Origin: Candidatus Brocadiia bacterium
Lineage (GTDB): Bacteria; Planctomycetota; Brocadiia; CAIUPP01
Length of the DNA: 64,000 nucleotides
Reading direction: 5' to 3'
Assembly: GCA_050015075.1 (NCBI GenBank)
Contig: JBEKCB010000021.1
Coordinates: 1 to 64,000 of the forward strand
Shown: positions 1 to 64,000 of the stretch, one piece after another
Layout: every line of letters starts with the position of its first letter
Position numbering within the stretch: position 1 is the stretch's first letter
Notes under the pieces: generated by a model
The model's input: only the letters and a program-made list of their open reading frames with translations
The model's database searches: none
Told to the model about the DNA's origin: nothing
Made by a program: the position numbers and the translations under genes

Positions 1-2607
1 CTTCTCCTCGGAAAGCGGCGCCATCGAGACGTAATAATCCTGCCCTTCGACGTTCACCGGCACGATCGAGCGCACCATGTCCATCCCGGGCCGGGCGTCC
101 AGCATGTCCTGCAGCGCCGTCTGGGGCTGCGGATCGTGGAGGGTGATGTGGAGTTCGCCGGTGGCCGGCTCAGTGAAGGACATCACCCGCAGGTGAGTCT
201 CCTTGGACCTGGCGATCGTATCGAGGTCGCTGTCCTTGCCATAGACGGCCATGTCCCGGCCGATCTCGGAACCGGCGTCTTTGCCGAACCCGATGACGCG
301 CAGGTCCTCCGGCAGGACGTCGCCGGGTTTCATTTTCAGGATGTCGCGGTAAATCGCCTGGCGCACCGCCTCGGTGGAGCGCGTTCCCGCGAGGTGGATC
401 GGCACGTACCTGCGGCCCGCGGCGGCGCCTTCGGCGTGGGTCACATCCTCGGTGGTCACCGGGTCAATCGTCACGACCACGGTCTCCTGCCCGATCAGCG
501 ATTCGAGCGCGTCGAGCACGGCGGCGATCCGGGTCTCCGGGTTGAACTCGATGGCGGAGGCCTTCAGCTTCACGGAGAATTCCGAAGGCAGCCGCTCCTT
601 CTCCTTATCCATCAGCGTGATCCGGCGGATGTCGGATTCCGCATAGCGCCGCCTGGAGAGCAGGTCGCGAAGCGCCAGCGGGCTGATCGGGCGCGCCAGG
701 TGCAGGGTGAAATCCCACGACTTGGGGTCGGGGTTCTTCTCCACCGTGCCGTAAAGCTGCTGCGCCCTCAGGAGATCCACGAAGTCCTCGCGCATCTTCA
801 CCTGCCGCTGCTCATCGGTGAGCTGGCGGATGCGAATCGAGAACAGCTTCCCCTTCTCGGCCTGCAGCCCGGCCTCGGCGGTGGACCAGACGCTCTGCAC
901 GTCCGCGCCCATCGGGAAGAGCTTGGCGACGCGCTCGCGGAAATCGCTGATCGGCTCGCTGCGCTTCAGCTCCATTTCCGCGCGGAAGCCGCCGGCCAGC
1001 TCCGTATCGCGTTCGTAATTCCACCGCGCCACGAACACGCTCAGCCCGGCGATGCCGAAGAACACCGTGCCGGCGATGCAGATGTACCGGTACTTCGAAA
1101 ACGGGATGTTCGGCCGGCCGAAGAGGTGCATCATGTGCAGCTTGGTGAGCCAGCCTTTCTCCACGACGACATCCAGGAGCCAGCGCGTGACCCAGAACGA
1201 GGTGAACAAGCTGAGGACCAGGCCCAGGATGAGCGTGATGGCGAACCCGCGCACCGGCCCGGTGCCGACGCCGAACAGGATCAGCGCGGTGATGATTGTG
1301 GTCAGGTGCGTATCCAGGATGACCATGAAGGCGCGTTCGTAGCCGGTGCGGATCGCCAGGCGCAGCGTTTTGCCGCGCTGGCCTTCCTCGCGGATGCGCT
1401 CGTTGATCAGCACGTTCGCGTCCACCGCCATGCCGAGCGTCAGCACCAGGCCGGCGATGCCCGGCAGCGTGAGCACCGACTGCATGCCCGCCATTCCGCC
1501 GAGGACCAGCAGCAGGTTCACCAGCACCGCGAAGTCCGCGATGGCGCCGCCGACGAGGTAGTAGACCGCCATGAAGGCCACGACCACCACGAGCCCGACG
1601 AGGCTCGCCCGGATTCCCGCGCGGATGCTGTCCTCGCCGAGCTGCGCGCCGACGGTGTTGTTCCATTCCAGCTCGATGTCCGCCGGAAGCTGGCCGGCGC
1701 GGAGCGTGGTGACCAGGTCGTCCACTTCCTGCTTGGTGAAACTGCCGGTGATGACGCCGGACCCGGAGATGCGCGAGTGGATTTCGGGCGCGGAATAGAG
1801 GTCCTCGTCGAGGATGATCGCCAGCAGCCGGCCCGGATGCTGTTCGGTGCGCTGGTACTGGTCCGTCAGGCGCTCGAAGTCCTGCCGGCCCTTGCCGTGG
1901 AACGAGAAGGCGACCGTCGGCATGCCCGTCTGCGGGTCCGTGGTCCCCTTCGCCTCGCTGAGGTACTCGCCGGTGACGTAGGCCTTGTTCTCGACGAGGT
2001 ACCACTCGTGGGTCGAGACGTCGGGCGGCAGGTCCTTCACGTCGCGGAAGGTGGCCTTGTGCCAGCGCCTGATCTTGCCCTGCGGGTCGCGGTCAATCTG
2101 GTGGGTCACCGGGTCGCGCGCGGGCAGGAACGGCGTGGTGTTGGCCACGCGGTCGCCGCGCCGCGCCGCTTCCATGTCCTCGGCGCGCTCGTCCACCAGG
2201 CAGAAGCGCAGTTGCCCGGCCTTGCGGATGAGCGCCTCGATCCGCGCCGACTCCTCCGCGCCCATGCCCGGAAGCTGGATGTAGAACCGGTCCTCGCCGC
2301 GCGGGCGGATGTCCAGCTCCATGCGGCCGTCCGGGTCCACGCGCCGGCGGATGACCTCGATCGTGCGCGCCACGATGTCCTTGCGGTCCGCCGCGCTCAT
2401 CTCGGACGTGCGGATCTTGTAAAGCAGCTCGCTGCCGCCCTTCAGGTCCAGCCCGAGCGGAATGCGCGTCACCCAGTGGGTCAACGGCTTGCCGTCCGGC
2501 CCGGTCTCCGTGATGCGCTCCGGGTGGATCGCGATCGCGCCGATCACCGCCAGGATGACCACGAGCGCGAGCTTGAAATACAGCTTCGGAAGTATCTTGC
2601 CCATCAT
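1..2607 (-). CDS. secDF: Protein translocase SecD/SecF fusion (3' end runs off the window)
   Basis: Manual minus-strand translation from ATG 2607 gives MMGKILPK...IPLGLDLKGGSELLYKI (SecD motif), later LPGIAGLVLTLGMAVDANVLINERIREE and a second GLDFREG (SecF) motif; follows yajC. Absent from the ORF track because it has no stop in the window. Confidence 0.92.
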   Translation of the reverse strand, partial: MMGKILPKLYFKLALVVILAVIGAIAIHPERITETGPDGKPLTHWVTRIPLGLDLKGGSELLYKIRTSEMSAADRKDIVARTIEVIRRRVDPDGRMELDIRPRGEDRFYIQLPGMGAEESARIEALIRKAGQLRFCLVDERAEDMEAARRGDRVANTTPFLPARDPVTHQIDRDPQGKIRRWHKATFRDVKDLPPDVSTHEWYLVENKAYVTGEYLSEAKGTTDPQTGMPTVAFSFHGKGRQDFERLTDQYQRTEQHPGRLLAIILDEDLYSAPEIHSRISGSGVITGSFTKQEVDDLVTTLRAGQLPADIELEWNNTVGAQLGEDSIRAGIRASLVGLVVVVAFMAVYYLVGGAIADFAVLVNLLLVLGGMAGMQSVLTLPGIAGLVLTLGMAVDANVLINERIREEGQRGKTLRLAIRTGYERAFMVILDTHLTTIITALILFGVGTGPVRGFAITLILGLVLSLFTSFWVTRWLLDVVVEKGWLTKLHMMHLFGRPNIPFSKYRYICIAGTVFFGIAGLSVFVARWNYERDTELAGGFRAEMELKRSEPISDFRERVAKLFPMGADVQSVWSTAEAGLQAEKGKLFSIRIRQLTDEQRQVKMREDFVDLLRAQQLYGTVEKNPDPKSWDFTLHLARPISPLALRDLLSRRRYAESDIRRITLMDKEKERLPSEFSVKLKASAIEFNPETRIAAVLDALESLIGQETVVVTIDPVTTEDVTHAEGAAAGRRYVPIHLAGTRSTEAVRQAIYRDILKMKPGDVLPEDLRVIGFGKDAGSEIGRDMAVYGKDSDLDTIARSKETHLRVMSFTEPATGELHITLHDPQPQTALQDMLDARPGMDMVRSIVPVNVEGQDYYVSMAPLSEEK

Positions 2608-2623
2608 GATGGAAGCGGGACTC

Positions 2624-3013
2624 CTACTGCTTCTTGTCTTCGGCCGAACCGGAACCCTGCGTCAGGATCTCATGGATCGCGCCGCGCCGGAATTTGAGCG
2701 TGGTGCCGCGCTCGCGGTCCACGAGCAGGATGACGTACTCCTCCTTGGAGTTGACGCTTTCGACTTCGCCGAAGAGGCCGCCGATGGTGACGACCTCCGC
2801 GCCGCGTTCGAGCTTGCTGAGCATCTCCTTGCGCTGCTGGTCTTTCTTCTTCTGCGGGCGGATCATCATGAAGTAAATGATGGCGAAGATGGCGATGATC
2901 CAGATGAAGAACATCGGCGAGAAGGGCGATCCGCCCGCTCCGCCGGCGGCGCCGCTCGGTGCGCTGGCGGTGCCGGCGGCTTGGGCCAGGATCGGCATGG
3001 TCAGACTCAGCAT
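2624..3013 (-). CDS. yajC: Preprotein translocase subunit YajC
   Basis: IIYFMMIRPQKKKDQQRKEMLSKLERGAEVVTIGGLFG motif; lies between tgt and secD; start re-assigned to ATG 3013. Confidence 0.93.
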   Translation of the reverse strand: MLSLTMPILAQAAGTASAPSGAAGGAGGSPFSPMFFIWIIAIFAIIYFMMIRPQKKKDQQRKEMLSKLERGAEVVTIGGLFGEVESVNSKEEYVILLVDRERGTTLKFRRGAIHEILTQGSGSAEDKKQ

Positions 3014-3035
3014 GGGGCTTCCTTTCACAGAGGTC

Positions 3036-3096
3036 GGAAGTGCGAGTGATGAATGATGAAGCACTTCATCACTCATCGCTCATCGTTCGCACTTCC
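3036..3096. repeat. Inverted heptamer-repeat element (GAGTGAT/GAATGAT ... ATCACTC/ATCGCTC)
   Basis: GGAAGTGCGAGTGATGAATGATGAA-GCAC-TTCATCACTCATCGCTCATCGTTCGCACTTCC; overlaps the tgt stop codon. Confidence 0.75.
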
Positions 3097-4184: not shown

Positions 4185-4185
4185 G

Positions 4186-13012: not shown

Positions 13013-13048
13013 ACCACGCGGCTTCAACTCCCACCGTGCCGGCGCACA

Positions 13049-13102
13049 CGATAGGAGTCATCAGCCGGACGTTGGCGTTTATACGGGGGACTCCATCCCC
13101 AG
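13049..13102 (-). promoter_or_regulatory. Fluoride (crcB) riboswitch
   Basis: GGGGATGGAGTCCCCCGTATAAACGCC...GGCTGATGACTCCTATC matches the crcB aptamer pattern; upstream TTGCAT...TATAAT promoter at 13110-13139. Confidence 0.88.
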
Positions 13103-13291
13103 GAAAACGATTATACCGAACAGGGAACGGAAAATGCAAAGTGCAACATGTGAGCCCGGATTTGCCCGACACGCCGGAAAGCCGCCGGGAATGAACTTGA
13201 CAGAGGCCGCTTCGAGGGTACAATACCTCCGTCTGGAACTGGTCCTCCTCAAAGGGACAGTCCCCTTCGAAACTCCCAATGGAGATGGAAG

Positions 13292-22694: not shown

Positions 22695-22948
22695 GCAGAT
22701 GATGCTTGGACGCTTGAGTTGTTCAGGAATCAGGCATCTTTACCTGCGAAAGGAGGCCAGACCGTTCCAGTCCGTCGGCGGCGCGGACGCCACGTCGCTG
22801 AGGCACCAATAAGAGCGGGGATGAAAGAACGCCCACGCTCTCTAAAGACGTGGTGCCCTTCCCGTTCAGGCGTCAGGTGCGGCACCGATTGCGGTGTCCG
22901 CGGGTTTTAGGCTGTTGGCTTGATCTTTTTCACAGGAGGAAAGTGCGA

Positions 22949-23368
22949 ATGAGAAAGCTCATTCAAAACTTGCGACGCAGACAGGCGTTTACGTTAGTTG
23001 AGTTGATGATCGTGGTCACGATCGTCGCCATTCTGGCCTTGATCGCCATTCCGCTGTATTCGGCGAACACGACCGCGGCGATCATGTCCGAGGGCGTGGC
23101 GGGTGCAGGCACCATGCGCACCGCGCTGCGGACCTATTACTCGCAGAACGGCAGTTACACCGGTGCGACGTATCCGGGCAGCCTGACGATCGGCGGAAGC
23201 GACCTGCAAGGCAAGTATTTTGCCTCGACGGATTACTCGCTGCTGAACGTCACCGCCTCGACCTACACGATCAAGGCGGGGCCGCCTTCGCAGACGACCA
23301 AGACGACCCAGTACTACGAGATCAATCAGCTCGGTTCGGAACTGGGCACGTATTACACCAATCAGTAA
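22949..23368 (+). CDS. Type IV major pilin-like protein
   Basis: RRRQA|FTLVELMIVVTIVAILALIAIPLY class III signal with E5; strong RBS AGGAGG. Confidence 0.92.
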   Translation: MRKLIQNLRRRQAFTLVELMIVVTIVAILALIAIPLYSANTTAAIMSEGVAGAGTMRTALRTYYSQNGSYTGATYPGSLTIGGSDLQGKYFASTDYSLLNVTASTYTIKAGPPSQTTKTTQYYEINQLGSELGTYYTNQ

Positions 23369-23431
23369 GTAAGTGAGCGGGTATTAGAGATATCCGGAGT
23401 CCGTAGCGCAAAGGCGAAAGCGAGGCCGCAA

Positions 23432-23875
23432 ATGTTGCGCATCGGCAGTTTTCCGTCTTCGACCGGCGGCGCGTCGCGCGTGCGCCTTGTGAGAAAAAAG
23501 GCGCATTGCGCGGCGCAGGCGTCGCTGACCGAAGTCATAGTGGCCGTGACGATCCTGACCGTCGTGGTCTGGGGAATGGTGGGATTCCTGATGAACGGGC
23601 GCGTGCTGGTGGAGCGCACGGGCCAGGGTGTCATCGCCGCCCAGATCGCAGAGCAGCAGATTGACAAGACGCGCTCCCTGGCCTACGCCTCGATCGCCAC
23701 CACCAACGGAACGCAAACGGTCAACGGCCTCCTGTACACGTGGGTGCTGACGGTGACCACCGCACAGGCGGACCCTGCGGATGGCAACAGCACGTTCAGG
23801 CAGACCGGAGTGAAAGTCACCTGGCCGACGGCGCCTAATGCCGATGCCGTGCTCTACACGGCCATCGCCAAGTGA
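23432..23875 (+). CDS. Minor pilin (PilV-like); start uncertain
   Basis: QA|SLTEVIVAVTIL degenerate prepilin motif; position in the cluster. Confidence 0.72.
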   Translation: MLRIGSFPSSTGGASRVRLVRKKAHCAAQASLTEVIVAVTILTVVVWGMVGFLMNGRVLVERTGQGVIAAQIAEQQIDKTRSLAYASIATTNGTQTVNGLLYTWVLTVTTAQADPADGNSTFRQTGVKVTWPTAPNADAVLYTAIAK

Positions 23876-23887
23876 TGGAGAGGATCG

Positions 23888-24445
23888 ATGCGACGCTTTC
23901 ATACGACAAGGCGAGGAGTGAGCCTGCTGGAGCTGATCGTCTCGATGGCGGCCGCCAGCATCGCCATGCTCATCGGGCTGACGGCCTGGGGCGTCGGGTG
24001 GACACAATATAAGAACGTGGAGTACGCCAGCCGGGCCTACCTGGACGCTTTCGGGGTGGTGAACTCCATCCAGGAACAGGTCCAGCGCAGCAATACGATC
24101 GAGATGCTTACCGGGGGTAATGGATCCAGTTACGGAACTATAGTCTCCAGTCCGGGCAGCACCACCTACTCGGGGATTTTGCTGCTCGTCCCTAATCCGA
24201 ACAGCGAGACGAACCCGTCCGTTGCCACGAACCCCTTGCAGCGCGCGTATTGGCTGTCGGGGAACAACCTCATGATGCAATGGATAAGCGAGAACATCGG
24301 CCCGATAGTGCTCTTCAGCGACGTCACCTCGTTTTCGGCGACCATCCAGAACACGCCGACGAATTCGGTCGTCCAGCTCACCTGTACGTGCGTCGACGGG
24401 ACTGAGACGGTTACCATGTCCACGCAGGCCTTGATGAGGAATTGA
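23888..24445 (+). CDS. Minor pilin (PilW-like)
   Basis: RRG|VSLLELIVSMA prepilin motif. Confidence 0.75.
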   Translation: MRRFHTTRRGVSLLELIVSMAAASIAMLIGLTAWGVGWTQYKNVEYASRAYLDAFGVVNSIQEQVQRSNTIEMLTGGNGSSYGTIVSSPGSTTYSGILLLVPNPNSETNPSVATNPLQRAYWLSGNNLMMQWISENIGPIVLFSDVTSFSATIQNTPTNSVVQLTCTCVDGTETVTMSTQALMRN

Positions 24446-24447
24446 TC

Positions 24448-25866
24448 ATGCGCCCGAAAATCCGCAGAGTCCGCGGGCGACCCATTCCACAGCGAGCGAC
24501 GCAGTGCGGCATGGTATTGCCCTACGCTCTGTTCGTCACCGTCCTGATCCTGATCCTGGGGCTGGCGTTCCTGCAGACGAGCGCCACCGAAAGCCTCGTG
24601 GCCACCCGCAACGTGCAGCGCCTCCAGGCCAACGCCGCGGCCGAGTACGGCATCGCCCGCGCTCGCGCCATGGCCGACAGCCAGTTCGGCGTCTGGTTTG
24701 CGATGACGTACAACGGCAGTCCCCTCAACTGGGCCACGAGCCCCTATTACAGCGGACACAGCATCTGCAACCTGTTCACCAACCAGACCGTTCCCTCTTT
24801 CTCCACGGCGACTTACTCGGTGGTGATCGAGGACCTGACCGGCGACGTGGTCACCAGCGGCACCTACCGCATTCACGGTTACGGCACGGTCGGCACTTAC
24901 ACCCGGCAAGTGTCGCTCGATTCCCAGGCGCTCACCTTTGCCTCGTTCGGATGGCTCACCAACTCCGAGAACGGCGTCTGGTTCAGAACCGGCGACTGGC
25001 TCAGCGGTCTGATCTGGACCAACGGCCAGTTCAACATTGACGGTAACCCCTCGTTCAACGGCCCCGTTTACAGCGGGAGCGGCACCATCAACTACATGAA
25101 CGGAGGCCCGCCGAATGATAATCCGACGTTCGCCGACGGCATTACCTACAACGCGGGCAACATCAACATCTCCTCGCTGATCAGCGGCGGCCAGATCACC
25201 GCGATCCAGAACGCCGCCAACAGCGGCGGAATTTCCGAGCCCTCCAACAGCGGCCGCGGCTACACCTTGACCTTCAATCCCGCCGGCACGTTCACCCTCG
25301 TGAAGAACGGCGTCGGCGGCATGCACCCCGTCGCGCCGGTTACCCTCTACAATAACGCTGCGATCTCGACGATCAACGGCGCCTTCTACTTCCAGGACCC
25401 CGTCCAGGTCAGCGGCACCATTGACGGACAGGTCACCGTCGCCACCTCGTCGGGCAACGATATTGATATCACCGGCAACCTGGTCTATTCCTATCCCGCA
25501 ACCCCCGCGTCTATGTTCGTCGCCGGCTTCAACCAGAGCGACCCGCTCCTGACGAGCAAATGCGCCCTCATCTCCGGCGGCAACCTCGTCATAGACCAGA
25601 CCTGGTCGGGCGGTTGGACGGACATGTACGTCACAGCAGTCTGCGCCTCGGTGACCGGCTCCTTCGAGAACCAATACTACACGAACTCGCCGCAGAAAAC
25701 GCTCCACTTGTACGGCGGCATCACCCAGATGACGCGCGGCGCCGTTGGAACCGTATCGGGCACCGGCTTTCTGAAGGATTACCTTTACGACACGCGTTTC
25801 ATGACGTCGCCGCCGCCGTTCCTGCCGCCCGTCGGCGCCCAGTTCAGCAACTGGCAGCTCCATTGA
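24448..25866 (+). CDS. Large PilX-like minor pilin / putative tip adhesin
   Basis: CG|MVLPYAL without E5, QANAAAEYGIARA PilX-type motif, Asn/Gly/Thr-rich C-terminal domain ending in YDTRF..PPPFLP. Confidence 0.72.
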   Translation: MRPKIRRVRGRPIPQRATQCGMVLPYALFVTVLILILGLAFLQTSATESLVATRNVQRLQANAAAEYGIARARAMADSQFGVWFAMTYNGSPLNWATSPYYSGHSICNLFTNQTVPSFSTATYSVVIEDLTGDVVTSGTYRIHGYGTVGTYTRQVSLDSQALTFASFGWLTNSENGVWFRTGDWLSGLIWTNGQFNIDGNPSFNGPVYSGSGTINYMNGGPPNDNPTFADGITYNAGNINISSLISGGQITAIQNAANSGGISEPSNSGRGYTLTFNPAGTFTLVKNGVGGMHPVAPVTLYNNAAISTINGAFYFQDPVQVSGTIDGQVTVATSSGNDIDITGNLVYSYPATPASMFVAGFNQSDPLLTSKCALISGGNLVIDQTWSGGWTDMYVTAVCASVTGSFENQYYTNSPQKTLHLYGGITQMTRGAVGTVSGTGFLKDYLYDTRFMTSPPPFLPPVGAQFSNWQLH

Positions 25867-26089
25867 TTGAGCAGGGCACACATGCAACACCGCGAAGGAC
25901 ATGAAGGGCCGAGGCGCAATACAATGAAACTCGCGGATTTTCTTTTTCGCGGGGGTCAATTTTGCGCCGATTACGCCGATGTCAATAACAGCGGGGTTGT
26001 GCCGCGCGAAGGAAATGAAGCATTCGGCTGCCCGCGGTCAGCCAAGGGCTGAAAGCGACTAGCCCCCGAATGGGAGGAAAAAAAGGCGC

Positions 26090-27190: not shown

Positions 27191-27251
27191 TAGAGCGAAG
27201 CTGAACGCTCGTCACGGATAGCTGAGAGTTTTTCGAGGAGTCGTTCCGGCA

Positions 27252-27932
27252 ATGGCCAACGCACCAAACGAAGTCCGCCTCTTCGAGGTCAACCTGATCA
27301 GCGATCAGGTCAGTATGCTGCTGCGCCGGAGGGCCTTCCAGCAACTTTCCGGGATCGCGGCCGTGCTGATGCTGGTCGCGGGAACGGTCCTGGCGTTCTT
27401 GATGGCCATGCACCTGATCACGGCCCTCCACATGCGAAGCGGGACCCAGATCAAGATCCAGGAACTCGCGGACCTGCAGAAGATCTGCACAGAACTCGAT
27501 AACCAACGCGAGAATGCGAAGAAGCGCGCGGACGCCGTGGCGCCGCTGCTGCCGATCGCGCGCCAGCGCGTGGCGTGGGCGCCCAAGCTCGCCGCCGCGG
27601 CCGCCGCCCTGCCGCCCGGCACCGGCATCGTCAGCCTCCAAGCCACCCAGCGCGATGTCTTCGTCGTCCGCACCCCCGCCGGCCCGAAGTCCGGACCCTC
27701 CGCGTTTGCCGCGCAGGACGAGGCTGGCCTGCCGCAGATCGCCCTCGCCATCCTCTACAGGTCTGCGCCAGGCGTCGAGGACAACCTCGGCTTGTATGCG
27801 GAGCGCCTCAAGAAAGATGCGACGTTCATGAACAAGTTTGACTCCGTCCACCTGGTGGCCATGGAGCAGGATTCCTGGGGGGGCAAGCCGGTGGAGGTTC
27901 TACATATCCACGCACAGGGGACGCCGAAATGA
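27252..27932 (+). CDS. PilN-like membrane protein
   Basis: EVNLI motif plus one TM and a coiled coil, directly after pilM. Confidence 0.65.
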   Translation: MANAPNEVRLFEVNLISDQVSMLLRRRAFQQLSGIAAVLMLVAGTVLAFLMAMHLITALHMRSGTQIKIQELADLQKICTELDNQRENAKKRADAVAPLLPIARQRVAWAPKLAAAAAALPPGTGIVSLQATQRDVFVVRTPAGPKSGPSAFAAQDEAGLPQIALAILYRSAPGVEDNLGLYAERLKKDATFMNKFDSVHLVAMEQDSWGGKPVEVLHIHAQGTPK

Positions 27933-30863: not shown

Positions 30864-32111
30864 ATGCCCACTTTTACGTTTGCAGCCGTGGACGAGGCCG
30901 GGAAGTCGATCTCCGGCGTGCGCGCGGCCGCCACGCGGCAAGAGGTCATCAGCCGCCTGCGCGCGGAGAACTTCGTCGTGACCTCCGTCGCCGAAGAGAG
31001 CGCCGCCGGCGCCTCCGACGCGAAGAGCCCCGGCCGAGTCGCCGCCGCTTTCGAGTCGGTCTTCGGCAACAAGGTCAAGCAGGCCGACCTGATGATCTTC
31101 TCGCGGCAGTTCGCGGCCATGCTCAAGGCGGGCATCTCGCTGACCGATGCGCTGCACACCATCTCGCACAGCGTCAACAATCCGTTGCTGCGCCAGACGC
31201 TGCAGACGGTGCGCACGGACGTGCAGCGCGGGCAGTCGCTCACCGAGGCGATGCGCCGGCATCGGCGCGCGTTCGACCCGCTCTTCCTGAGCATCGTGCA
31301 CGCCGGCGAGACGAGCGGTTCGCTCGCCCAGAACGTGACGCGCCTCTCGCTGTACCTTCAGCGCCGCGAAGGGTTCCGCCTGAAGCTGCGCGCGGCCACC
31401 GCTTACCCGAAGTTCGTCGTGGTCTTCTTCTCGCTGCTGACCGGCGGCATCTTCCTCTTCCTCATTCCGAAGTTCAACGACCTCTTCAAGTCGTTCGGCG
31501 CGAAACTGCCGAAGCTGACCGCCACGGTCATGAACATGAGCCTCTTCATGAAGCATTACTTCCTGATCATCCTGCCGGTCCTCATCGTGCTGATCGTCAC
31601 GCTGCTGGTGCTGCGGCGCACGCCCAAGGGCGGCGCGCTGGTGGACCGCTACGTCCTGAAGATCCCCTTCTTCGGTCCGCTGTTCCTTCATGCGGCGGTG
31701 GCGCGCCTGGCGATGACGCTGAGCACCCTGCTCTCGAACGGCCTGCCGCTGACCGACGCGCTGGAGATCGCCACCGGGACGATGGGCAATGCGGTGCTCG
31801 AAGAGGGCTGCCAGCGCGCGCGTAAAGATGTGATGAGCGGTTCGAGCCTGGCGGAAAGCCTCAGCCGCGTCGAGGAACTCCCGCGCCTGCTGCCGCGCAT
31901 GGTGCGCGTGGGCGAGGAGGCCGGCACGCTGAGCAGCATGCTCGAGGACGTGGCAAGCTACTACGACCAGGAAGTGGATTACGCGCTCGGGCGCATCGCC
32001 GTGGTGATCGAGCCGGTGCTGATCTGCGGCATGGGCGCGGTGGTGCTCGTGGTGGTCATAGCGGTTTACCTGCCGATCTTCAGCATCGGACAGATGATGG
32101 GCGGCCATTGA
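30864..32111 (+). CDS. pilC: Inner-membrane platform protein PilC (GspF family)
   Basis: FSRQFAAMLKAGI, AGETSG, YP, VGEEAG, IEP motifs. Confidence 0.92.
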   Translation: MPTFTFAAVDEAGKSISGVRAAATRQEVISRLRAENFVVTSVAEESAAGASDAKSPGRVAAAFESVFGNKVKQADLMIFSRQFAAMLKAGISLTDALHTISHSVNNPLLRQTLQTVRTDVQRGQSLTEAMRRHRRAFDPLFLSIVHAGETSGSLAQNVTRLSLYLQRREGFRLKLRAATAYPKFVVVFFSLLTGGIFLFLIPKFNDLFKSFGAKLPKLTATVMNMSLFMKHYFLIILPVLIVLIVTLLVLRRTPKGGALVDRYVLKIPFFGPLFLHAAVARLAMTLSTLLSNGLPLTDALEIATGTMGNAVLEEGCQRARKDVMSGSSLAESLSRVEELPRLLPRMVRVGEEAGTLSSMLEDVASYYDQEVDYALGRIAVVIEPVLICGMGAVVLVVVIAVYLPIFSIGQMMGGH

Positions 32112-56116: not shown

Positions 56117-56331
56117 AATATGTACTCGGCTTCCTGCGGTTCTGGTATGACTTCGTCATCGGCGACTGCTGGCAGATCGCCGCGGGCGTGGTCGTCGTGC
56201 TCGGGTGCGGGGCGTGGCTGGCGCACTCGCAGATCATCCGCCCCGGCCTGATCCCTCCGGTCGCCGGACTCGGCGTCGTCCTGGTCGTCGTCATCAGCCT
56301 GCTCGCGACCGCGCGAGAGCGCGCACGGTAG
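56113..56331 (+). CDS. Small membrane protein coupled to the COG4280 gene
   Basis: FWYDFVIGDCW plus two TM segments; ATGA overlap. Confidence 0.7.
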   Translation: MKYVLGFLRFWYDFVIGDCWQIAAGVVVVLGCGAWLAHSQIIRPGLIPPVAGLGVVLVVVISLLATARERAR

Positions 56332-56359
56332 GCGCCGCAATCCGGTTCGACGGGGGAAA

Positions 56360-57646
56360 ATGGGGCGAATCGAACCTATGTCCCAACCGCTATCCGCCTG
56401 GCGGCGAGCCATGGAGTTCCTCGGCCTGAAACGCAGCATGGCCGGCATGCTGGGCATGGTCATCCTCGTCGGAATGGGCGAGCAGATCGGCGAGCGTTTC
56501 CTCCCGCGGTACATCGAGGTGTTGTCGGGCGGCGCCGTCGGCAAAGTCCTCACGGTGACGAGTATCCTCGCCATCGGCTTGCTCGCCGGCATGGACGACC
56601 TGCTTTCGGCGCTCTACTCGTTCCCCGGTGGGTACCTCAGCGACCGGCTGGGCACGAAGCGCGCGCTCCTGGTTTTCAACTTCCTCTCCATGTTCGGGTA
56701 CGTCGTCATCCTCGTCATTCACACCTGGTGGGCGGTGCTGGTCGGGGCGGCGTTCTTCATCTCCTGGTCGGCCATTTCGCTGCCGGCGACGATGGAGATC
56801 GTGGCGAAGGTAGTGCCGAAGAACAAGCGCGCCATGGGCGTTTCGATGACCTCGCTGATCCGGCGCGTCCCCAAGACGCTCGGGCCGGTCATCGGCGGCA
56901 CGTTCATTGCGCTCTGGGGCATAGACCGCGGCGTGCGCGCGGCGTTTGTGGCGGCCATCGCGCTGGCGCTCGTCGGGATGATCGTGCAACAACGCTTCAT
57001 CGAGGACGACCGGCTCCGCCCCGGCGATCCGCCTCGCCCGAAGGCGGAGAAAAATCCGTTCAGGCTCTATCGTGAAATGAGCCCCCAACTGCGCAATCTG
57101 CTCATCTCCGACATCCTCATCCGCTTCTGCGAGCGCATTCCCGATTGCTTTGTCATCATCTGGTGCACCGTGCAGATCCTGCGGCCGGTCACGGATTTCA
57201 CTTTCGGCTGGCTCTCGGCCGTCGAGCAGGTGACCGCGGTGCTCTGCTACATCCCGGTGGCGCACATGGCCGACCGGTTCGGGAAGAAGCCGTTCGTGGC
57301 GGTCACCTTCGGCTTCTTCACGCTCTTCCCGCTGATGCTCATGTTCGCGCAGTCGCTCTGGGCGCTGGTGCCGGTGTTCGTCCTGCGCGGCCTGAAGGAG
57401 TTCGGCGAGCCGTCGCGCAAGGCGCTCATCATGGACCTGGCCCCGGAGGACCGGAAGGCGGCCATGTTCGGGCTGTACTACCTGATCCGCGACGTCTTCG
57501 TGTCGCTCGCGGCCTTCGGCGGGTCGCTGCTCTGGCTGATCGGCCCGAGAGTCAACCTGCTGGCCGCCTTCGCCTTCGGCGTCATCGGCACGACCTGGTT
57601 CGTGCTGAAAGGACGCGACCTGTCGCGCGCTCCAGGAGCCGCGTGA
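56360..57646 (+). CDS. MFS transporter
   Basis: GYLSDRLGTK and ADRFGKK motifs, about 12 TM segments. Confidence 0.9.
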   Translation: MGRIEPMSQPLSAWRRAMEFLGLKRSMAGMLGMVILVGMGEQIGERFLPRYIEVLSGGAVGKVLTVTSILAIGLLAGMDDLLSALYSFPGGYLSDRLGTKRALLVFNFLSMFGYVVILVIHTWWAVLVGAAFFISWSAISLPATMEIVAKVVPKNKRAMGVSMTSLIRRVPKTLGPVIGGTFIALWGIDRGVRAAFVAAIALALVGMIVQQRFIEDDRLRPGDPPRPKAEKNPFRLYREMSPQLRNLLISDILIRFCERIPDCFVIIWCTVQILRPVTDFTFGWLSAVEQVTAVLCYIPVAHMADRFGKKPFVAVTFGFFTLFPLMLMFAQSLWALVPVFVLRGLKEFGEPSRKALIMDLAPEDRKAAMFGLYYLIRDVFVSLAAFGGSLLWLIGPRVNLLAAFAFGVIGTTWFVLKGRDLSRAPGAA

Positions 57647-57784
57647 CCAGGTTCTGACCCGCAGCGCAGCCGATTGCCGAGGCGCGAAAATCCGGCCCTC
57701 CTTGCATCTTTCCGTTGCAAGCGATACATTCTCTTTCGACCGCGGCGGTGACCGCGGCATGATCTTCAAGACGAGAGCAGCCGG

Positions 57785-59176
57785 ATGACGCGCGAGAGTG
57801 CGATCCTCGAACGAAGAAATGGAACCCGGAACAAGCTTCTCGCCGGGGACCGTCAAGCACATGACTGGTACCGTTTTGTTCTTTCGTTCCCGCCGCACCT
57901 TGTCCGCGACTATCTCCAGCGCTTCCGGGTGAGCGCGGGACAATGTGCACTCGATCCGTTCTGCGGCACTGGAACCACACTCGTCGAATGCAAGAAACTG
58001 GGGATACGCAGCGTCGGCGTCGAGGCCAATCCCATGGCTTGGTTTGCCAGCCGCGTTAAAACGAATTGGAGCGGACGCCCGGAAGGACTGCGCCAGCACG
58101 CAGAATTCGTCGCCGACAGGACCTTGGAGCGTTTGCGGGCCGACGGGATTGAGGACGATCCATTCTTTCGCGCCCCCAGACGAGCCCGTACCGCCTTGCG
58201 CGGATTGGCGCCGGAGCAAGAAAGTTTACTCCTCAGCGGCTCCATCAGCCCGATGCCGTTACACAAGACTCTCGTCCTCCTGGAAACTCTGCAAGAGCAC
58301 CGCGATGAACGCTTTGACGATTACGAGCGGTTGGCCCTCGCCAAGGCCCTTGTTCAGACCATCGGCAACTTGCATTTCGGGCCGGAAGTCGGCGTAGGAC
58401 CGGCCAAGCCGGACGCGCGCGTGGTTTCCTCCTGGCTGGAAGGCGTCAACGCTATTGCGAATGATCTGCGCGAGTTGGCGCGCTTGGAGCGGACTCCGGC
58501 AACCGTTCACAACGCGGACTCGCGTCAGATTGCAGACCTGCTTCAGCCCGAAAGCGTTGACGCCGTAATTACGTCGCCCCCTTACCCGAACGAGAAAGAC
58601 TACACGCGCACGACCCGGTTGGAGTTGGTCATCCTCGGGTTGATTCACAGCAAGGAGGAATTGCGTAATCTCAAGAAAGGCCTTGTGCGTTCCAACACGC
58701 GCAGCGTGTACGTCGCCGACGACGACGATCAGTGGATTCGTGACCATCCGGAAATCAAGCGAATCGCCGACGCGATCGAGAGCCGACGTATCGAGTTGGG
58801 CAAGACCTCCGGTTTTGAACGGCTTTATCCGCGCGTGACCAAGCTCTACTTCGGCGGCATGGCGCGACATCTGGCCGGATTACGCCAAGTCCTTCGACCG
58901 GGCGCGCAACTGGCCTATGTCGTCGGGGACCAAGCATCGTACTTGCGCGTCATGATCCGCACGGGCAAGATACTCGCGGAAATCGCGCAATCACTCGGGT
59001 ATGAATTGACCGGCATTGACCTCTTCCGCACGCGACTCGCGACGGCAACGCGGGAGCAGTTGCGCGAGGAAGTCGTATTGCTTCGCTGGCCGGGGACCGT
59101 GGCAACAACATGCGTCCGGGAGCGTCCGGCAAAATACCGACGGAAGCTACGAAGAACAGGGAAGAAACGGAGATGA
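57785..59176 (+). CDS. Amino-type DNA methyltransferase (probably N4-cytosine)
   Basis: DPFCGTGTT (motif I) precedes ITSPPY (motif IV); lower GC. Confidence 0.88.
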   Translation: MTRESAILERRNGTRNKLLAGDRQAHDWYRFVLSFPPHLVRDYLQRFRVSAGQCALDPFCGTGTTLVECKKLGIRSVGVEANPMAWFASRVKTNWSGRPEGLRQHAEFVADRTLERLRADGIEDDPFFRAPRRARTALRGLAPEQESLLLSGSISPMPLHKTLVLLETLQEHRDERFDDYERLALAKALVQTIGNLHFGPEVGVGPAKPDARVVSSWLEGVNAIANDLRELARLERTPATVHNADSRQIADLLQPESVDAVITSPPYPNEKDYTRTTRLELVILGLIHSKEELRNLKKGLVRSNTRSVYVADDDDQWIRDHPEIKRIADAIESRRIELGKTSGFERLYPRVTKLYFGGMARHLAGLRQVLRPGAQLAYVVGDQASYLRVMIRTGKILAEIAQSLGYELTGIDLFRTRLATATREQLREEVVLLRWPGTVATTCVRERPAKYRRKLRRTGKKRR

Positions 59177-59988
59177 GCAAGCAGAACCGATACGAGGATA
59201 TCATTGAGGCCATCTTTCGTTCGCATTCCATAGTACCAAGCGGATATAAGGAGTTCGAGTTCGGCCGAGACGAAATAGAACGTCAAGCGAAAAAGCTTCG
59301 CATCCAGCTGCCCAAAAACCTGGGCGACCTCATCTATAGTTTCCGCTATCGGACAGAGCTGCCGCCCTGGATTCGTCATTATGCGCCTGAAGGAAAGCAG
59401 TGGGTTATTCGCCCTGCTGGGCGCAGCCGGTATCGCTTCGCGCTCGTCAGCGCGGCGCGTATCGAACCACATCCGCTCGCGCCCGAGATAAAGATACCCG
59501 ATGCGACTCCGGGAATCATCGCCAGGCATTCCCTGTCTGATGAACAGGCGCTTCTGGCTAGAGTACGATACAACCGCCTCCTGGACATCTTCTGCGGCGT
59601 TGCAGCCTATTCGCTTCAAAGCCACTTGCGCAGTTCAGTTCCGGAAATGGGACAAGTAGAGACAGACGAAGTTTACGTCGGCATTCATCGCCGCGGAGCG
59701 CAGTACGTCTTTCCGGTTCAGGCGAAGGGCAAAAAGGACAAGCTCAGTCTTATCCAGATCGAGCAAGACCTCGCCCTTTGCAAGCTGAGATTCCCAGGCT
59801 TGATTTGCCGGCCTATCGGCGCACAGTTCCTTCCAGACCAAGGCATCGTCCTGTTCGAGTTTCGGGAAATGGAGGGGGTGGTCAAGCTGATTGCCGAAGA
59901 ACACTATCGTCTTGTTCCCTCCGATCAAATCACACAGGAAGACCTCAAGGCTTACGCGGCGCTTGTCGGCAAAGACCAGCTACAATAG
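59173..59988 (+). CDS. Putative PD-(D/E)XK restriction endonuclease
   Basis: ETDEVYVG...PVQAK motif; ATGA coupling to the methyltransferase. Confidence 0.7.
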   Translation: MSKQNRYEDIIEAIFRSHSIVPSGYKEFEFGRDEIERQAKKLRIQLPKNLGDLIYSFRYRTELPPWIRHYAPEGKQWVIRPAGRSRYRFALVSAARIEPHPLAPEIKIPDATPGIIARHSLSDEQALLARVRYNRLLDIFCGVAAYSLQSHLRSSVPEMGQVETDEVYVGIHRRGAQYVFPVQAKGKKDKLSLIQIEQDLALCKLRFPGLICRPIGAQFLPDQGIVLFEFREMEGVVKLIAEEHYRLVPSDQITQEDLKAYAALVGKDQLQ

Positions 59989-60075
59989 ACTCCACCGCTG
60001 TTGAAAGATTCCGCCCAACCCGCTAGATTCTTGTATCCGGCCGCGCCTGCGCCGGCTTTATCTCAAGGGTGAGAA

Positions 60076-63000
60076 ATGTTTCGTCCTGTCGAAAAGAATT
60101 TCGATCTCGTCGCCGCCGAACATGAAATCCTCCAGTTCTGGAAGGACACGGACGCGTTCGAGAAACTGCGCGCGAAGAACGCGGGGAAGCCGAAGTGGTC
60201 CTTCCTCGACGGCCCGATCACGGCCAATAATCCGATGGGCGTCCACCACGCCTGGGGCCGCTCGCTCAAGGACTGCTACCAGCGCTTCCACGCGATGAAG
60301 GGCCGCGAACTCCGCTACCAGAACGGCTTCGATTGCCAGGGCCTCTGGGTCGAGGTCGAGGTCGAGAAGGAGCTGGGCTTCAAGACCAAGCGCGATATCG
60401 AGGCGCACGGTCTCGAGAGGTTCATCAACCAGTGCAAGGAGCGCGTGAATAAGTTCGCCCGCATTCAGACGGAGCAGTCCATCCGGCTCGGCTATTGGAT
60501 GGACTGGGACCGCGAGGAGGACTGGGCCAAGGCGCCGGGCGAGCGCCGCAGTTACTTCACGATGTCCGACGAGAACAATTACACGATCTGGGCGTTCCTG
60601 AAGAAGTGCCACGAGCGCAAGCTGATCTACAAGGGACTCGACGCGATGCCCTGGTGCCCGCGCTGCGGCACGGGCATTTCCGAGCAGGAGCGCCGCGAGG
60701 GCTATAAGCGGATTCTCGACCAGGCGGTGTACATTAAGCTGCGCCTGCGCGGGCGGCCGGGCGAGCACCTGCTGGTGTGGACGACCACGCCGTGGACGCT
60801 CGCCGCCAACGTGGCCTGCGCGGTGCACCCGGAGATGCCGTACGTGAAGGTCCGCCAGGGCGACGAGGTTTACTATCTCGCTCGCGAGTTGCTGCGCGTG
60901 ATGAAGGAGCACGGGCCGTTCGAGGTCCTCGAGGAACTGCCCGGCAGCCGGCTGCTCGGACTGGAGTACGAAGGGCCGTTCGACGACCTGCCCAAGCCGG
61001 CCGAGGTCCAGGCCGCGCATCGCGTGATCGCGTGGAAGGAGGTCACCGCCACCGAGGGAACCGGCATCGTGCACATCGCGCCAGGCTGCGGCAAGGAGGA
61101 TTTCGACCTCTCGAAGGAGCTGAACCTGCCCGTGCTGGCGCCGATTGACGAGGCGGGCATTTACGTGCAGGGCTACGGGTTCCTTTCCGGCCGGTTCGCC
61201 GGCGAGGTCGCCAACGACGTGCTCGAAGAGCTGCGCCGGCGCAACGTCTATTACAAGCGCGAGATGTACGAGCACGATTACCCGCACTGCTGGCGCTGCA
61301 AGACGCAATTGCTCTTCCGCGCCGTGGACGAGTGGTACATCAACATGTCCTGGCGCGAGGAGATCATGAAGATCGTCCACCAGATCCGCTGGATCCCCGA
61401 CTACGGCAAGGACCTGGAGCTGGACTGGCTGGCGAACATGCACGACTGGATGATCAGCAAAAAGCGGTACTGGGGGCTCGCGCTGCCGATCTTCTCGTGC
61501 GAGTGCGGCTGGTTCGACGTCATCGGCGGCAAGGAGGAACTCAAAGCGCGCGCGGTCGCCGGCTGGGAGCAGTTCGAAGGCAACTCGCCGCATCGGCCCT
61601 GGGTGGACGCCATCCGCATCCGGTGCGAGAAGTGCGGCGGCCAAGCCGCGCGCATCCCGGACGTCGGCAACCCGTGGCTCGACGCCGGCATCGTCCCCTA
61701 CTCGACCGTCCGCTACAACAGCGACCGCGAGTACTGGAAGAAATGGATCCCGGCCGACCTCGTGCTCGAGTGTTTCCCCGGCCAGTTCCGCAACTGGTTC
61801 TACGCCCTGCTCTCCATGAGCGCGATGATGGAGCAGACGCCGCCCTTCCGCACGCTCCTCGGCCACGCCTTCGTCCGCGACGAAAAGGGCGAGGAGATGA
61901 GCAAGTCCGGCCCCAACTCCATCGTCTTCGACGAGGGAGCGGAGAAGGCGGGCGTGGACGCCATGCGCTGGCTCTTCTGCCGCCAGAACCCGAGCAACAA
62001 CCTGAACTTCGGCTACACGCTCACCGAGCAGGTCCGGCGCAAGGTCTTCAACACCTGGTGGAATACCCTCAGCTTCTTTATCAGCTACGCGCGGACGGAC
62101 GATTTCGATCCGGCGCTGCCCAAGGTCCCGGTCGCCGAGCGGCAGGATCTCGACCGCTGGATCCTCTCGCGGCTACAGGAACTGCTGGCGACGGCCAACG
62201 AGCGGCTGGCGGAGTACGATGCGCCGTCGCTGGTGCGCGCGGCGGAGGAGTTCATTGACGCGCTGAGCACCTGGTACGTGCGGCGCTCGCGCCGGCGCTT
62301 CTGGCGGCCGAAGGACCCGAACGACCGCGACAAGCTCGCCGCGTACCAGACGCTGCACGAGGCGCTCGTGGCGCTCTGCAAGGCGCTCGCGCCGGTCGTC
62401 CCGTTCCTCACCGAGCGGTTCTACCAGCGGCTCGTCCGCGACGTGGACCCGGCCGCGCCGGAGAGCGTCCACCATTGCGATTATCCGCAGCCGGACCCGG
62501 CGCTCCACGACGAGGCGCTCAGCCGCGAGATGGATGCGGCGATGCAGATCGTCTCCGACACGCTGGCGCTCCGCGAGTCGCGCCAGTTGCGCGTCCGCCA
62601 GCCGCTGAGCGAGATGATCCGGCTCCCGGCCCCTGCCGATGAGACGCAGGCGAACGCACTGCGCCGCTTCAAAGCACATATCCTGGACGAGCTCAACATC
62701 AAGAAGCTGACGATAGCACATGATCTTACAGGGATCGTTTCGTACGAGATCAAGCCGAACATGAAACTCCTCGGCCCGAAATACGGCAACGAGGCTGGAC
62801 GGCTCCGGGAGCTGCTTGCTGTTCTGGTAGAAAAGCAAGGCGCAGCATGGGTGGCCGAGCAAGTGCTGAAGAAGAATCCGATCAAGCTTCGTAGCGGAGA
62901 GGAATTCCTTCCGGAGGAAATCATCGTCGACAGGAAAGAGGCCGCCGGCTGGGCGGTGTCAGCCCAGGGCCAAGGCTGGACAGGGATCAATTACATCATC

Positions 63001-63270
63001 ACGCCGGAACTTGAACGCGAAGGTTTCGCTCGCGACATCGTCCGGCACATCCAGCAGATTCGCAAGGAACTCGACCTCGACCTCATGGACCACGTCACCG
63101 TCGCGTACGAGACCGCCGACGAAGTTCTGCTCAAGGCGATCGAGGAGAACCGGCCGCACATCCGCGGCGAGACGCTGTGCGACGATCTGTTCCCAGGCCA
63201 CAGCGAATCGGCAAAGGACATCACTCTTTCCGGCCGCGACATCCGGCTCACGGTTCAGAAAGTCGGCTGA
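60076..63270 (+). CDS. ileS: Isoleucine--tRNA ligase, type 2
   Basis: DGPITAN, GVHH, GFDCQGL, WTTTPWT, GTGIVH, DWMISKKRYWG, EMSKS, WYVRRSRRRFW; no C-terminal zinc finger. Confidence 0.96.
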   Translation: MFRPVEKNFDLVAAEHEILQFWKDTDAFEKLRAKNAGKPKWSFLDGPITANNPMGVHHAWGRSLKDCYQRFHAMKGRELRYQNGFDCQGLWVEVEVEKELGFKTKRDIEAHGLERFINQCKERVNKFARIQTEQSIRLGYWMDWDREEDWAKAPGERRSYFTMSDENNYTIWAFLKKCHERKLIYKGLDAMPWCPRCGTGISEQERREGYKRILDQAVYIKLRLRGRPGEHLLVWTTTPWTLAANVACAVHPEMPYVKVRQGDEVYYLARELLRVMKEHGPFEVLEELPGSRLLGLEYEGPFDDLPKPAEVQAAHRVIAWKEVTATEGTGIVHIAPGCGKEDFDLSKELNLPVLAPIDEAGIYVQGYGFLSGRFAGEVANDVLEELRRRNVYYKREMYEHDYPHCWRCKTQLLFRAVDEWYINMSWREEIMKIVHQIRWIPDYGKDLELDWLANMHDWMISKKRYWGLALPIFSCECGWFDVIGGKEELKARAVAGWEQFEGNSPHRPWVDAIRIRCEKCGGQAARIPDVGNPWLDAGIVPYSTVRYNSDREYWKKWIPADLVLECFPGQFRNWFYALLSMSAMMEQTPPFRTLLGHAFVRDEKGEEMSKSGPNSIVFDEGAEKAGVDAMRWLFCRQNPSNNLNFGYTLTEQVRRKVFNTWWNTLSFFISYARTDDFDPALPKVPVAERQDLDRWILSRLQELLATANERLAEYDAPSLVRAAEEFIDALSTWYVRRSRRRFWRPKDPNDRDKLAAYQTLHEALVALCKALAPVVPFLTERFYQRLVRDVDPAAPESVHHCDYPQPDPALHDEALSREMDAAMQIVSDTLALRESRQLRVRQPLSEMIRLPAPADETQANALRRFKAHILDELNIKKLTIAHDLTGIVSYEIKPNMKLLGPKYGNEAGRLRELLAVLVEKQGAAWVAEQVLKKNPIKLRSGEEFLPEEIIVDRKEAAGWAVSAQGQGWTGINYIITPELEREGFARDIVRHIQQIRKELDLDLMDHVTVAYETADEVLLKAIEENRPHIRGETLCDDLFPGHSESAKDITLSGRDIRLTVQKVG

Positions 63271-63281
63271 AGGAGGCACTC

Positions 63282-63932
63282 ATGCGTGCGAGGAGAATGC
63301 TTGGCGCGTTGGGCGTTGCGCTGTTCCTGGGCGGCATGGCGCTGGCGGCGGACGAGGCGCTCAAGCCGATCCCGCTGCCGAAGCCGCAGATGGAGGGCGG
63401 CAAGCCGTTGATGCGGGCGCTGAAGGACCGGCAGACCTCGCGCAGCTTCAGCTCCGAGAAGCTGTCGAAGCAGATCCTCTCGAACCTGCTCTGGGCGGCG
63501 GACGGAGTGAATCGGCCGGACGGCAAGCGCACCGCTCCGTCAGCGGTAAACTGGCAGGAAATTGACGTCTACGTCGCCATGGCCGACGGACTTTTTCTTT
63601 ACGACGCGAAGGCGAACGCGCTGCAGCCCGTGCTGGAGAAGGACATCCGGGAAACGACCGGAAAGCAGCCGTTCGTGAAGGACGCGCCGCTGAGCCTGGT
63701 CTTCGTCGCGGATTACGCGAAGATGGGCGACATATCCGACGCCGACAAGGCAATGTATTCGGCGGCGGACACGGGGTTCATCAGCCAGAACGTCTACCTG
63801 TTCTGCGCGTCGGAGGGGCTGGCGACGGGCGTGCGCGGGATGATACCCAGGGAAGAACTCGCGCAGGCGATGAAGCTGCGCCCGGACCAGAAGATCGTCC
63901 TGGCCCAGGGCGTCGGCTATCCGAAGAAGTAA
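63282..63932 (+). CDS. Nitroreductase / SagB-like protein with signal peptide
   Basis: RQTSRSF, RTAPSA, DTGFISQNVYL, VGYP; RBS AGGAGG. Confidence 0.88.
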   Translation: MRARRMLGALGVALFLGGMALAADEALKPIPLPKPQMEGGKPLMRALKDRQTSRSFSSEKLSKQILSNLLWAADGVNRPDGKRTAPSAVNWQEIDVYVAMADGLFLYDAKANALQPVLEKDIRETTGKQPFVKDAPLSLVFVADYAKMGDISDADKAMYSAADTGFISQNVYLFCASEGLATGVRGMIPREELAQAMKLRPDQKIVLAQGVGYPKK

Positions 63933-63980
63933 GCCTTCGAGGGGAAGGCAACGAGTTTTTGCCGCAAAGAGACGCAAAAG

Positions 63981-64000
63981 CTCTATCGTCCATCGTCCAT
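63981..64000. repeat. Start of another TATCGTC/CATCGTC heptamer element (cut by the window edge)
   Basis: CTATCGTCCATCGTCCAT, same unit as 20823-20910. Confidence 0.6.

Follow-up and report, generated by a model that had tools for sequence, protein, structure and literature searches.

Why should one degenerate six-base word, RTCGAY, be almost missing from bacterial chromosomal DNA in which its core, TCGA, is common? The question is raised by a stretch of 64,000 bases, positions 1-64,000 of contig C21 (JBEKCB010000021.1) in the assembly of a Candidatus Brocadiia bacterium of the phylum Planctomycetota (G000; 4.64 Mb, 66 contigs, 93.6% complete); this whole stretch is called the window below. 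Restriction-site avoidance by Type II restriction-modification (R-M) systems is reported to have been described by Gelfand and Koonin in 1997. We consider it likely that RTCGAY was purged from this genome by self-cutting selection from an orthodox Type II system specific for that word, in this lineage most likely a pair made of an AccI-family endonuclease and a gamma-class adenine methyltransferase.

The genome was compared with a set of 41 relatives and with a wider set of 400 other genomes of the Planctomycetota. Among the relatives, G001 is a sister species in the same genus (assembly 91% complete), G002 and G003 belong to the same family, and G005, G011 and G023 to the same class; G008 is a congener of G011, and G027 of G023. 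The metagenome runs that contain the window DNA are from peat.

Depletion in the window

A preliminary description of this DNA, made by reading the letters by eye, had reported four RTCGAY sites among very common TCGA. Exact counting gives the same result. TCGA occurs 362 times in the 64,000 bases (64.2% G+C), and there are exactly four RTCGAY sites, at the positions given there: ATCGAT at 23884..23889, GTCGAC at 24392..24397, GTCGAT at 30905..30910 and GTCGAC at 62926..62931. ATCGAC has no copy at all, and other NTCGAN words are frequent (CTCGAC 43, ATCGAG 42, GTCGAG 42, CTCGAT 38). With the expectation taken from a Markov model of sub-words, the correction that the description had called for, the four sites compare with 46.0 expected at order 4 or 81.6 at order 3, and the Poisson probability of four or fewer sites against the order-3 expectation is 7e-30.

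The compensating codon choice that had been noticed by eye is also present in the window, where 38 open reading frames (ORFs) were called. For Ile-Asp they use ATT-GAY 26 times, ATA-GAC five times and ATC-GAY never, yet ATC makes up 604 of the 747 Ile codons. Val-Asp is written GTG-GAY 51 times, GTT-GAC three times and GTC-GAY once, yet 535 of 1,103 Val codons are GTC. Before Glu the same two codons are in normal use (ATC-GAG 32, GTC-GAG 32).

Depletion in the whole genome

The whole 4.64-Mb genome has 314 RTCGAY sites, against about 3,580 expected. Counted on both strands, GTCGAC occurs 174 times against 2,606 expected (observed/expected ratio, O/E, 0.067), ATCGAT 86 times against 1,127 (0.076), and ATCGAC/GTCGAT 184 times against 1,714 (0.107). 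The four hexamers are among the five lowest of all 4,096, the fifth being CAGCTG at 0.084; the next lowest, GAGCTC, stands at 0.36. All four words are therefore low, at O/E 0.067-0.107, and the depletion is not limited to one of them. SalI and XamI recognise GTCGAC and ClaI recognises ATCGAT, both of which are subsets of RTCGAY, and none of these enzymes can explain the loss of ATCGAC/GTCGAT. The non-palindromic words are as depleted as the two palindromes, so that separate SalI-like and ClaI-like enzymes could not have produced the pattern.

The depletion has sharp edges and is symmetric on both strands. Those single-substitution neighbours of RTCGAY at inner positions that were tested have O/E values of 0.78-1.47, and the other NTCGAN words 0.49-1.70. 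When synonymous codons were resampled with every protein kept, RTCGAY had O/E values of 0.038, 0.029 and 0.022 in the three reading frames, which is a depletion of about 30-fold, and the controls YTCGAR and RTCGAR had values of 1.05-2.4; CAGCTG gave 0.031, 0.099 and 0.028. Codon pairs were counted in 2,899 ORFs picked by their pattern of G+C at third codon positions (GC3). The pairs that spell the word are nearly absent (O/E: ATC-GAC 0.06, ATC-GAT 0.03, GTC-GAC 0.02, GTC-GAT 0.04), their synonyms are raised (ATT-GAC 5.95, GTG-GAC 2.17, GTT-GAC 1.45), and the control pairs CTC-GAC, TTC-GAC and ATC-GAG stand at 1.57, 1.08 and 1.34. The Ile-Asp dipeptide itself is at 0.72 of expectation. In all, about 5,400 Ile-Asp and Val-Asp codon pairs in the genome have been diverted away from the preferred codons.

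Codon-pair effects exist in general, and such a pattern could in principle arise from a translational codon-pair bias or from an artefact of sequencing or assembly. We give next to no credence to either, since the depletion is equal in three frames and on both strands, contigs of independent peat runs carry the same sequence as the window, and relatives in the family differ about ten-fold.

A second alternative is mutational decay, in which a methyltransferase producing RT(m5C)GAY, as in Bifidobacterium breve, would make the cytosine hypermutable. This methylation does exist in B. breve (reported in PMC5829577), and ATT-GAC, the commonest replacement for Ile-Asp in our genome, is the C-to-T product. 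The products of deamination are, however, not in excess: GTTGAC/GTCAAC stands at 0.86 and ATTGAT/ATCAAT at 0.91, and the value of 1.47 for ATTGAC is matched by 1.41 for ATAGAC. Val-Asp has gone mostly to GTG-GAC (2.17, a C-to-G change), above GTT-GAC (1.45). The sole gene for a C5-cytosine methyltransferase (PF00145) lies in a prophage and occurs in none of the 41 relatives, for which reason it was rejected as the agent; in that set the depletion does not go with any orthologue of a C5 enzyme. According to PMC5829577, RTCGAY is the B. breve motif with the most methylated sites, so that the methylase does not purge the word there. The undepleted neighbours, the lack of a deamination excess and the C-to-G rewriting of Val-Asp together argue for selection on the word itself, and we consider decay of methylcytosine highly improbable.

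The 314 residual sites are over-dispersed, with 18 bins of 10 kb holding 4-7 sites where about two would be expected under a Poisson distribution. A quarter of them (25.8%) lie in 2-kb windows of less than 60% G+C, which make up 7.1% of the genome, and their density is highest on phage-like contigs and prophage stretches. This clustering in low-G+C and prophage DNA marks the DNA as newer, with the purge incomplete. The prophage-like regions (C2:230-250 kb, C17, C14, C58 and C63), in which RTCGAY is far denser than in the rest of the genome, carry genes for terminase, portal protein, ParB-fused methyltransferases and a pair of C5 and D12 methyltransferases.

Three of the four residual sites in the window fall in a cluster resembling type IV pilus and type II secretion system (T2SS) loci (22850-32111), which encodes pilin-like N_methyl proteins, PilM and T2SS protein F. 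The ATCGAT at 23884 (local G+C 0.607), beside type IV pilin-like genes, and the GTCGAC at 24392 (local G+C 0.620) share one stretch, at 23.4-24.4 kb, that lacks the GC3 pattern typical of the genome. The GTCGAT at 30905 is within a T2SS protein F-like gene (30864-32111, forward strand), and the GTCGAC at 62926 is within a gene for a class I tRNA synthetase (60076-63270, forward strand), to which we give the label ileS.

Distribution among relatives

The depletion is common to the sister species and to a second genus of the family, and a third genus is not depleted. Counting GTCGAC sites and ATCGAC on both strands, there are 87 and 184 in G000, 100 and 171 in G001 and 85 and 188 in G003, against 803 and 2,462 in G002. 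Within the class, low counts were found in G005 (24 and 40) and in four small genomes of family f7 (GTCGAC 4-79, ATCGAC 17-193), and the distribution is patchy even within genera: G011 (83 and 630) and G023 (119 and 213) are depleted, and their congeners G008 (959 and 7,844) and G027 (773 and 2,897) are not. Markov expectations for RTCGAY in samples of 40-60 kb per genome agree with the counts, with observed/expected numbers of 9/63 in G001, 0/55 in G003 and 1/68.5 in G005, and of 34/57.8 and 92/106.2 in the non-depleted G002 and G008. For G029, also not depleted, the numbers are 18/21.6. Six relatives (G005, G023, G024, G030, G034 and G036) are as depleted as G000 or more so; G030 has four GTCGAC sites in 2.2 Mb.

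In G017 only GTCGAC is low (249 sites, against 2,683 of ATCGAC), and this genome has a gene of the XamI family. The loss of GTCGAC only, in the presence of such a gene, is a positive control for reasoning from an avoided word to a gene.

The AccI-family pair

Five depleted genomes were searched for gamma-class methyltransferases, and local BLAST then brought out a two-gene candidate. Its first gene encodes an endonuclease of about 325 amino acids and its second a gamma-class N6-adenine methyltransferase of about 510 amino acids, and it was seen in the depleted genomes G003, G225 and G423. All six endonucleases scanned match the Pfam family RE_AccI (PF09545) at 29-63 bits, against a gathering cut-off of 22, and the motifs RPD and ECENS are conserved in their alignment.

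The presence of the pair goes together with the depletion. Among the 41 relatives, PF09545 matches occur in three (G001, G003 and G011), all of them depleted. In the wider set of 400 Planctomycetota, four genomes have the endonuclease. Two of these, G225 and G315, had RTCGAY O/E values of 0.10 and 0.20 that were measured before carriers were searched for; for the other two, G157 and G196, depletion was predicted from the endonuclease and then measured, at 0.08 and 0.15. G423, in which the methyltransferase lies at a contig end, has a value of 0.10. In the 23 sampled genomes that remain, values between 0.29 and 1.27 were measured, the lowest three being 0.29, 0.32 and 0.40. Every genome found with the endonuclease or its methyltransferase is thus depleted (G001, G003, G011, G157, G196, G225, G315 and G423). 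A scan of viral contigs with the AccI-family alignment found no relative.

AccI itself recognises GTMKAC, which includes GTCGAC. The candidate pair resembles it in the profile match, in having GTCGAC in its word set and in its adenine methyltransferase partner. It differs in that the other words of AccI are not avoided in G000 (GTAGAC/GTCTAC 0.78, GTATAC 0.91) and that ATCGAT and ATCGAC are. With these other words of AccI kept and RTCGAY avoided, the degenerate positions would have shifted from the middle of the word to its two ends, as in a family member with changed specificity.

In G001 the AccI-family endonuclease stands alone with its reading frame intact (locus 1450-2439). No methyltransferase adjoins it, and no orthologue of the pair's methyltransferase was found elsewhere in that assembly. 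The protein is 53% identical to the endonuclease of G003 and is thus more diverged than the homologues in other classes, for which the identity is 62-75%. It has Gly at the second Glu of ECENS, a residue that is kept in the six other aligned members (the motif reads DVENS in G011). By analogy with ExE catalytic motifs, the G001 endonuclease is probably inactive, and it looks like a decaying relic.

The variable slot in the window

The complete pair of G003 is separated by about 1.9 kb from the orthologue of an MFS transporter gene, which in our window (56360-57646, forward strand) is the left anchor of a variable R-M slot. The right anchor is the gene of the class I tRNA synthetase at 60076-63270. 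The segment between, 57799-60019 (2,221 bp, forward strand), is of lower G+C (55-62%) and specific to G000. Its flanks align to G001 at 93-96% nucleotide identity (56,320-57,798 and 60,020-61,450), with the alignments ending at 57798 and 60020. At the same place G001 has a 1,034-bp segment that holds only the AccI-family endonuclease gene. At this slot there has been an exchange of R-M cassettes between the sister species.

The cassette of G000 begins with a gene for a DNA methyltransferase of 463 amino acids (57785-59176, forward strand; Pfam N6_N4_Mtase and UPF0020). Its motif I (FCGTG) comes before motif IV (SPPY), an order that suggests an N4-cytosine enzyme. An overlapping ORF of 292 amino acids (59110-59988, forward strand) is presumed to be the endonuclease of the cassette, and it has no match in Pfam or NCBIfam. 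Contigs from other peat runs bridge both cassette junctions, so that the arrangement is not an assembly error. In the contigs of four peat runs over 56,300-61,500, neither a junction that bypasses the cassette nor another allele was seen, a negative that does not bear on strain variation because contigs cannot show absence.

Because the cassette sits exactly where G001 has its AccI-family endonuclease, it might have replaced that system with one of the same specificity, RTCGAY. Once purged of sites, a genome could presumably accept such an isospecific system at little cost, and G005, which has a homologue of the 292-residue ORF, is strongly depleted. Homologues of this ORF (54-60% identity overall) are, however, also present at 54-59% in G002, G008 and G029, which are not depleted, and missing in G001 and G003, which are depleted without the cassette. 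Leaving CAGCTG and GTCGAC aside, GGATCC is the word whose numbers are most consistently low in the other four cassette hosts (observed/expected 1/12.9, 7/22.1, 2/15.9 and 1/3.8), which is a better fit for an N4-cytosine enzyme; yet GGATCC is also low in G001, without the cassette, and stands at 0.69 in G000. The cassette was rejected as the RTCGAY system on the evidence of the non-depleted hosts. The 292-residue protein is probably not specific for RTCGAY, and isospecific replacement is in our judgement very unlikely.

Other restriction-modification systems in the genome

Searches with five methyltransferase families identified about 20 methyltransferase genes in G000, none of which could be tied to RTCGAY. 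Four two-gene systems of classical Type II appearance lie in islands of lower G+C, on C37, on C40, in the window slot and on C24.

The C37 pair (C37:3613-5908) consists of a gamma-class methyltransferase of 484 amino acids and an overlapping ORF of 295 amino acids with the pattern PD..SxK..EE. It is the leading candidate for a further alternative, namely that the avoidance is kept up today by an unrecognised resident RTCGAY system. Among the 41 genomes compared, its endonuclease occurs only in G000 and G001, the two genomes whose depletion persists with no functioning AccI-family pair. Of the methyltransferases in G000, the one on C37 is nearest to the methyltransferase of the AccI-family pair (24% identity over 493 amino acids, including the C-terminal half; E = 1e-21), and a methyltransferase of the C37 type is also the best match in G001. 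The endonuclease has a faint match to XhoI, which recognises CTCGAG with the same TCGA core (E = 0.17), and the timing argument given below, which compares site counts with third-position divergence, favours ongoing selection. The homologues speak against such a role. There are more than 2,500 homologues of the 295-residue protein at 50-94% identity across Planctomycetota, Acidobacteriota and Proteobacteria, and in nearly all of 79 loci elsewhere with homologues of 50-63% identity RTCGAY is at expectation; among the 66 of these loci that are at least 12 kb long, GTCGAC is strongly depleted in four and ATCGAT in five. For the two systems to which we assign words, homologues at similar identity are accompanied by depletion in every genome, unlike for C37. 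No consistently avoided word of 4-8 bases was found for the C37 endonuclease family, a profile comparison with the AccI-family endonucleases detected no relation, and sequence searches of the PDB gave no match. We therefore regard a resident system of this kind as unlikely. An assignment of the C37 pair to CAGCTG was withdrawn, since strong depletion of CAGCTG in 22 of the 66 loci is about the control rate.

The C40 pair (C40:6868-8916), in a low-G+C island, encodes a Dam-like (D12) methyltransferase of 309 amino acids and a SacI-family endonuclease of 371 amino acids. It is common to G000, G001 and G003, with the methyltransferase also in G005, and was considered as the RTCGAY system. When metagenomes were scanned with the SacI-family enzyme, the results for RTCGAY were mixed, which is explained by shared ancestry, and a test across the phylum points to CAGCTG instead. 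Orthologues of the methyltransferase (62-72% identity) occur in 13 of the 400 genomes. In 10-60 kb from each of these carriers CAGCTG occurs 14 times against 246.8 expected, with 0-4 sites in each genome, and in 13 controls, chosen in advance by their handle numbers, there are 162 copies against 311.4. RTCGAY is alike in carriers and controls (890/1,147 and 968/1,238). CAGCTG is low in about a third of the control genomes too. The C40 pair is likely to be a CAGCTG system and not an RTCGAY system. In G005 an orthologue of the CAGCTG methyltransferase is retained as an orphan, with housekeeping genes on either side.

Further candidates for RTCGAY were rejected. An orphan beta-class adenine methyltransferase (C37:8945-9841; 298 amino acids, DPPF motif), directly after a TopoVI-B-like gene, has orthologues at 57-96% identity in 12 of the 41 relatives, including non-depleted ones, and may be a conserved methyltransferase unconnected with restriction. 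A 390-residue methyltransferase on C1 has an orthologue in G001 only, and the C24 methyltransferase with an SPPY motif has none in five depleted genomes. Neither the XamI nor the PvuII endonuclease family was found in G000. At C1:129539-130809, in a stretch without the usual GC3 pattern, a 121-residue piece of an SPPY methyltransferase, with motif I missing, is followed by an intact ORF of 306 amino acids without a family match; this may be a broken R-M system. A fluoride riboswitch is located in the window at 13045-13109 on the reverse strand (Rfam RF01734, 45.5 bits, E = 2e-9).

Origin and timing of the avoidance

The proposal made in the preliminary description, long-term selection against a degenerate RTCGAY specificity, is upheld in its main part: the depletion covers all the hexamers, is exact and independent of frame, is shared by the lineage and tracks the AccI-family pair. 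It has to be amended in two respects, in that the word is already known from B. breve and that a cognate system was not found in this genome.

We infer self-restriction as the mechanism. Each new RTCGAY site would be a place where a lapse of methylation is lethal, and mutations that destroy sites would accumulate because new sites are dangerous. In genes these would be synonymous changes before Asp, from ATC to ATT or ATA and from GTC to GTG. The agent in the lineage would be the AccI-family pair, which is intact in G003; in G001 only the probably inactive endonuclease remains, in the slot between the MFS and tRNA synthetase genes. In G000 this slot (57,799-60,019) is occupied by the other cassette, and neither member of the pair was found in the assembly. 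The avoidance in G000 would then either be kept by a strain-variable or unassembled copy or be a very recent relic of a lost system.

Several observations weigh against this account. The specificity of the pair for RTCGAY is read from co-occurrence, and the carriers are partly kin: G423 and G196 are of one genus and G315 is of their family, and G225 and G157 are of one family, so that there are perhaps four or five independent lineages. The searches made did not find the pair in the depleted G005, G023, G024, G030, G034 and G036. At least one further agent acting on RTCGAY must therefore be present in the class, and it possibly acts in G000 as well. In the G000 assembly no cognate pair was found by tblastn with the endonucleases of G003 and G001 or with PF09545. 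The timing of a loss is a further difficulty. Of 7,234 third codon positions aligned between G000 and G001, 11.2% are different. In a simulation of uniform mutation at third positions, 314 sites rise to 506 at 2% change, to 781 at 5% and to 1,183 at 10%. The actual numbers are 314 in G000 and 271 in G001, and neither genome has the pair's methyltransferase. With about 300 sites or fewer in both species, the constraint must have been active for most of the time since they split. A loss in their common ancestor does not fit, and recent independent losses or another agent would be required.

The timing argument suggests that the constraint outlived the recognisable genes. The options that remain are very recent independent losses, a strain-variable or unassembled RTCGAY system, and another resident system such as the C37 pair, against which its homologues count. 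A broader version of the account, which we think unlikely, is that the pair is a new RTCGAY-cutting prototype in the Planctomycetota and that the purge is sustained by gene flow with enzyme-carrying strains or neighbours, so that it would outlive the gene in any one genome. If this were true, DNA bearing the sites would be continually disadvantaged in gene flow.

Relation to known systems and significance

Avoidance by Type II systems, as described by Rusinov et al. (2015; PMC4687349), likewise concerns short symmetric words below their Markov expectation and is stronger for long-resident systems. The same paper reports avoidance of Type II sites also in genomes without the system, read as the trace of lost systems. 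The avoidance in G000 differs from these known cases in its degree, about 30-fold in coding DNA, in the degeneracy of the word and in being shown down to codon pairs and in three frames.

The word itself is known. Among the methylation motifs of B. breve is RT(m5C)GAY (PMC5829577), the methyltransferase M.Bbr28III recognises RTCGAY (bioRxiv 10.1101/2024.07.15.603628), and the restriction sites listed for strain UCC2003 include RTCGAY (PMC12592239). The B. breve methyltransferase is a C5-cytosine enzyme, and the motif is abundant in that genome. In the lineage of G000 the word is nearly absent, and the candidate combines an N6-adenine gamma-class enzyme with an endonuclease of the AccI family. 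A literature search for joint avoidance of GTCGAC and ATCGAT in connection with restriction-modification found no paper.

The phenomenon is known and so is the word; the purge of RTCGAY is a very strong example of it. What would be new is the deduction, from the patterns of avoidance and gene presence, that an AccI-family pair is specific for RTCGAY and that a SacI-family pair, with its Dam-like methyltransferase, is specific for CAGCTG. Also new are the finding that both avoidances recur across the Planctomycetota, the cassette exchange at the window's slot and the persistence of the purge without a recognisable cognate system.

The genome offers a very clean natural example of how deeply one restriction specificity can rewrite a genome. 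When avoidance profiles are set beside the presence of genes in uncultured genomes, recognition words can be assigned to enzyme families not yet characterised, and the assignments made here are testable predictions of possibly useful enzymes. For the transformation of these peat Planctomycetota, RTCGAY and CAGCTG are the words to remove from vectors.

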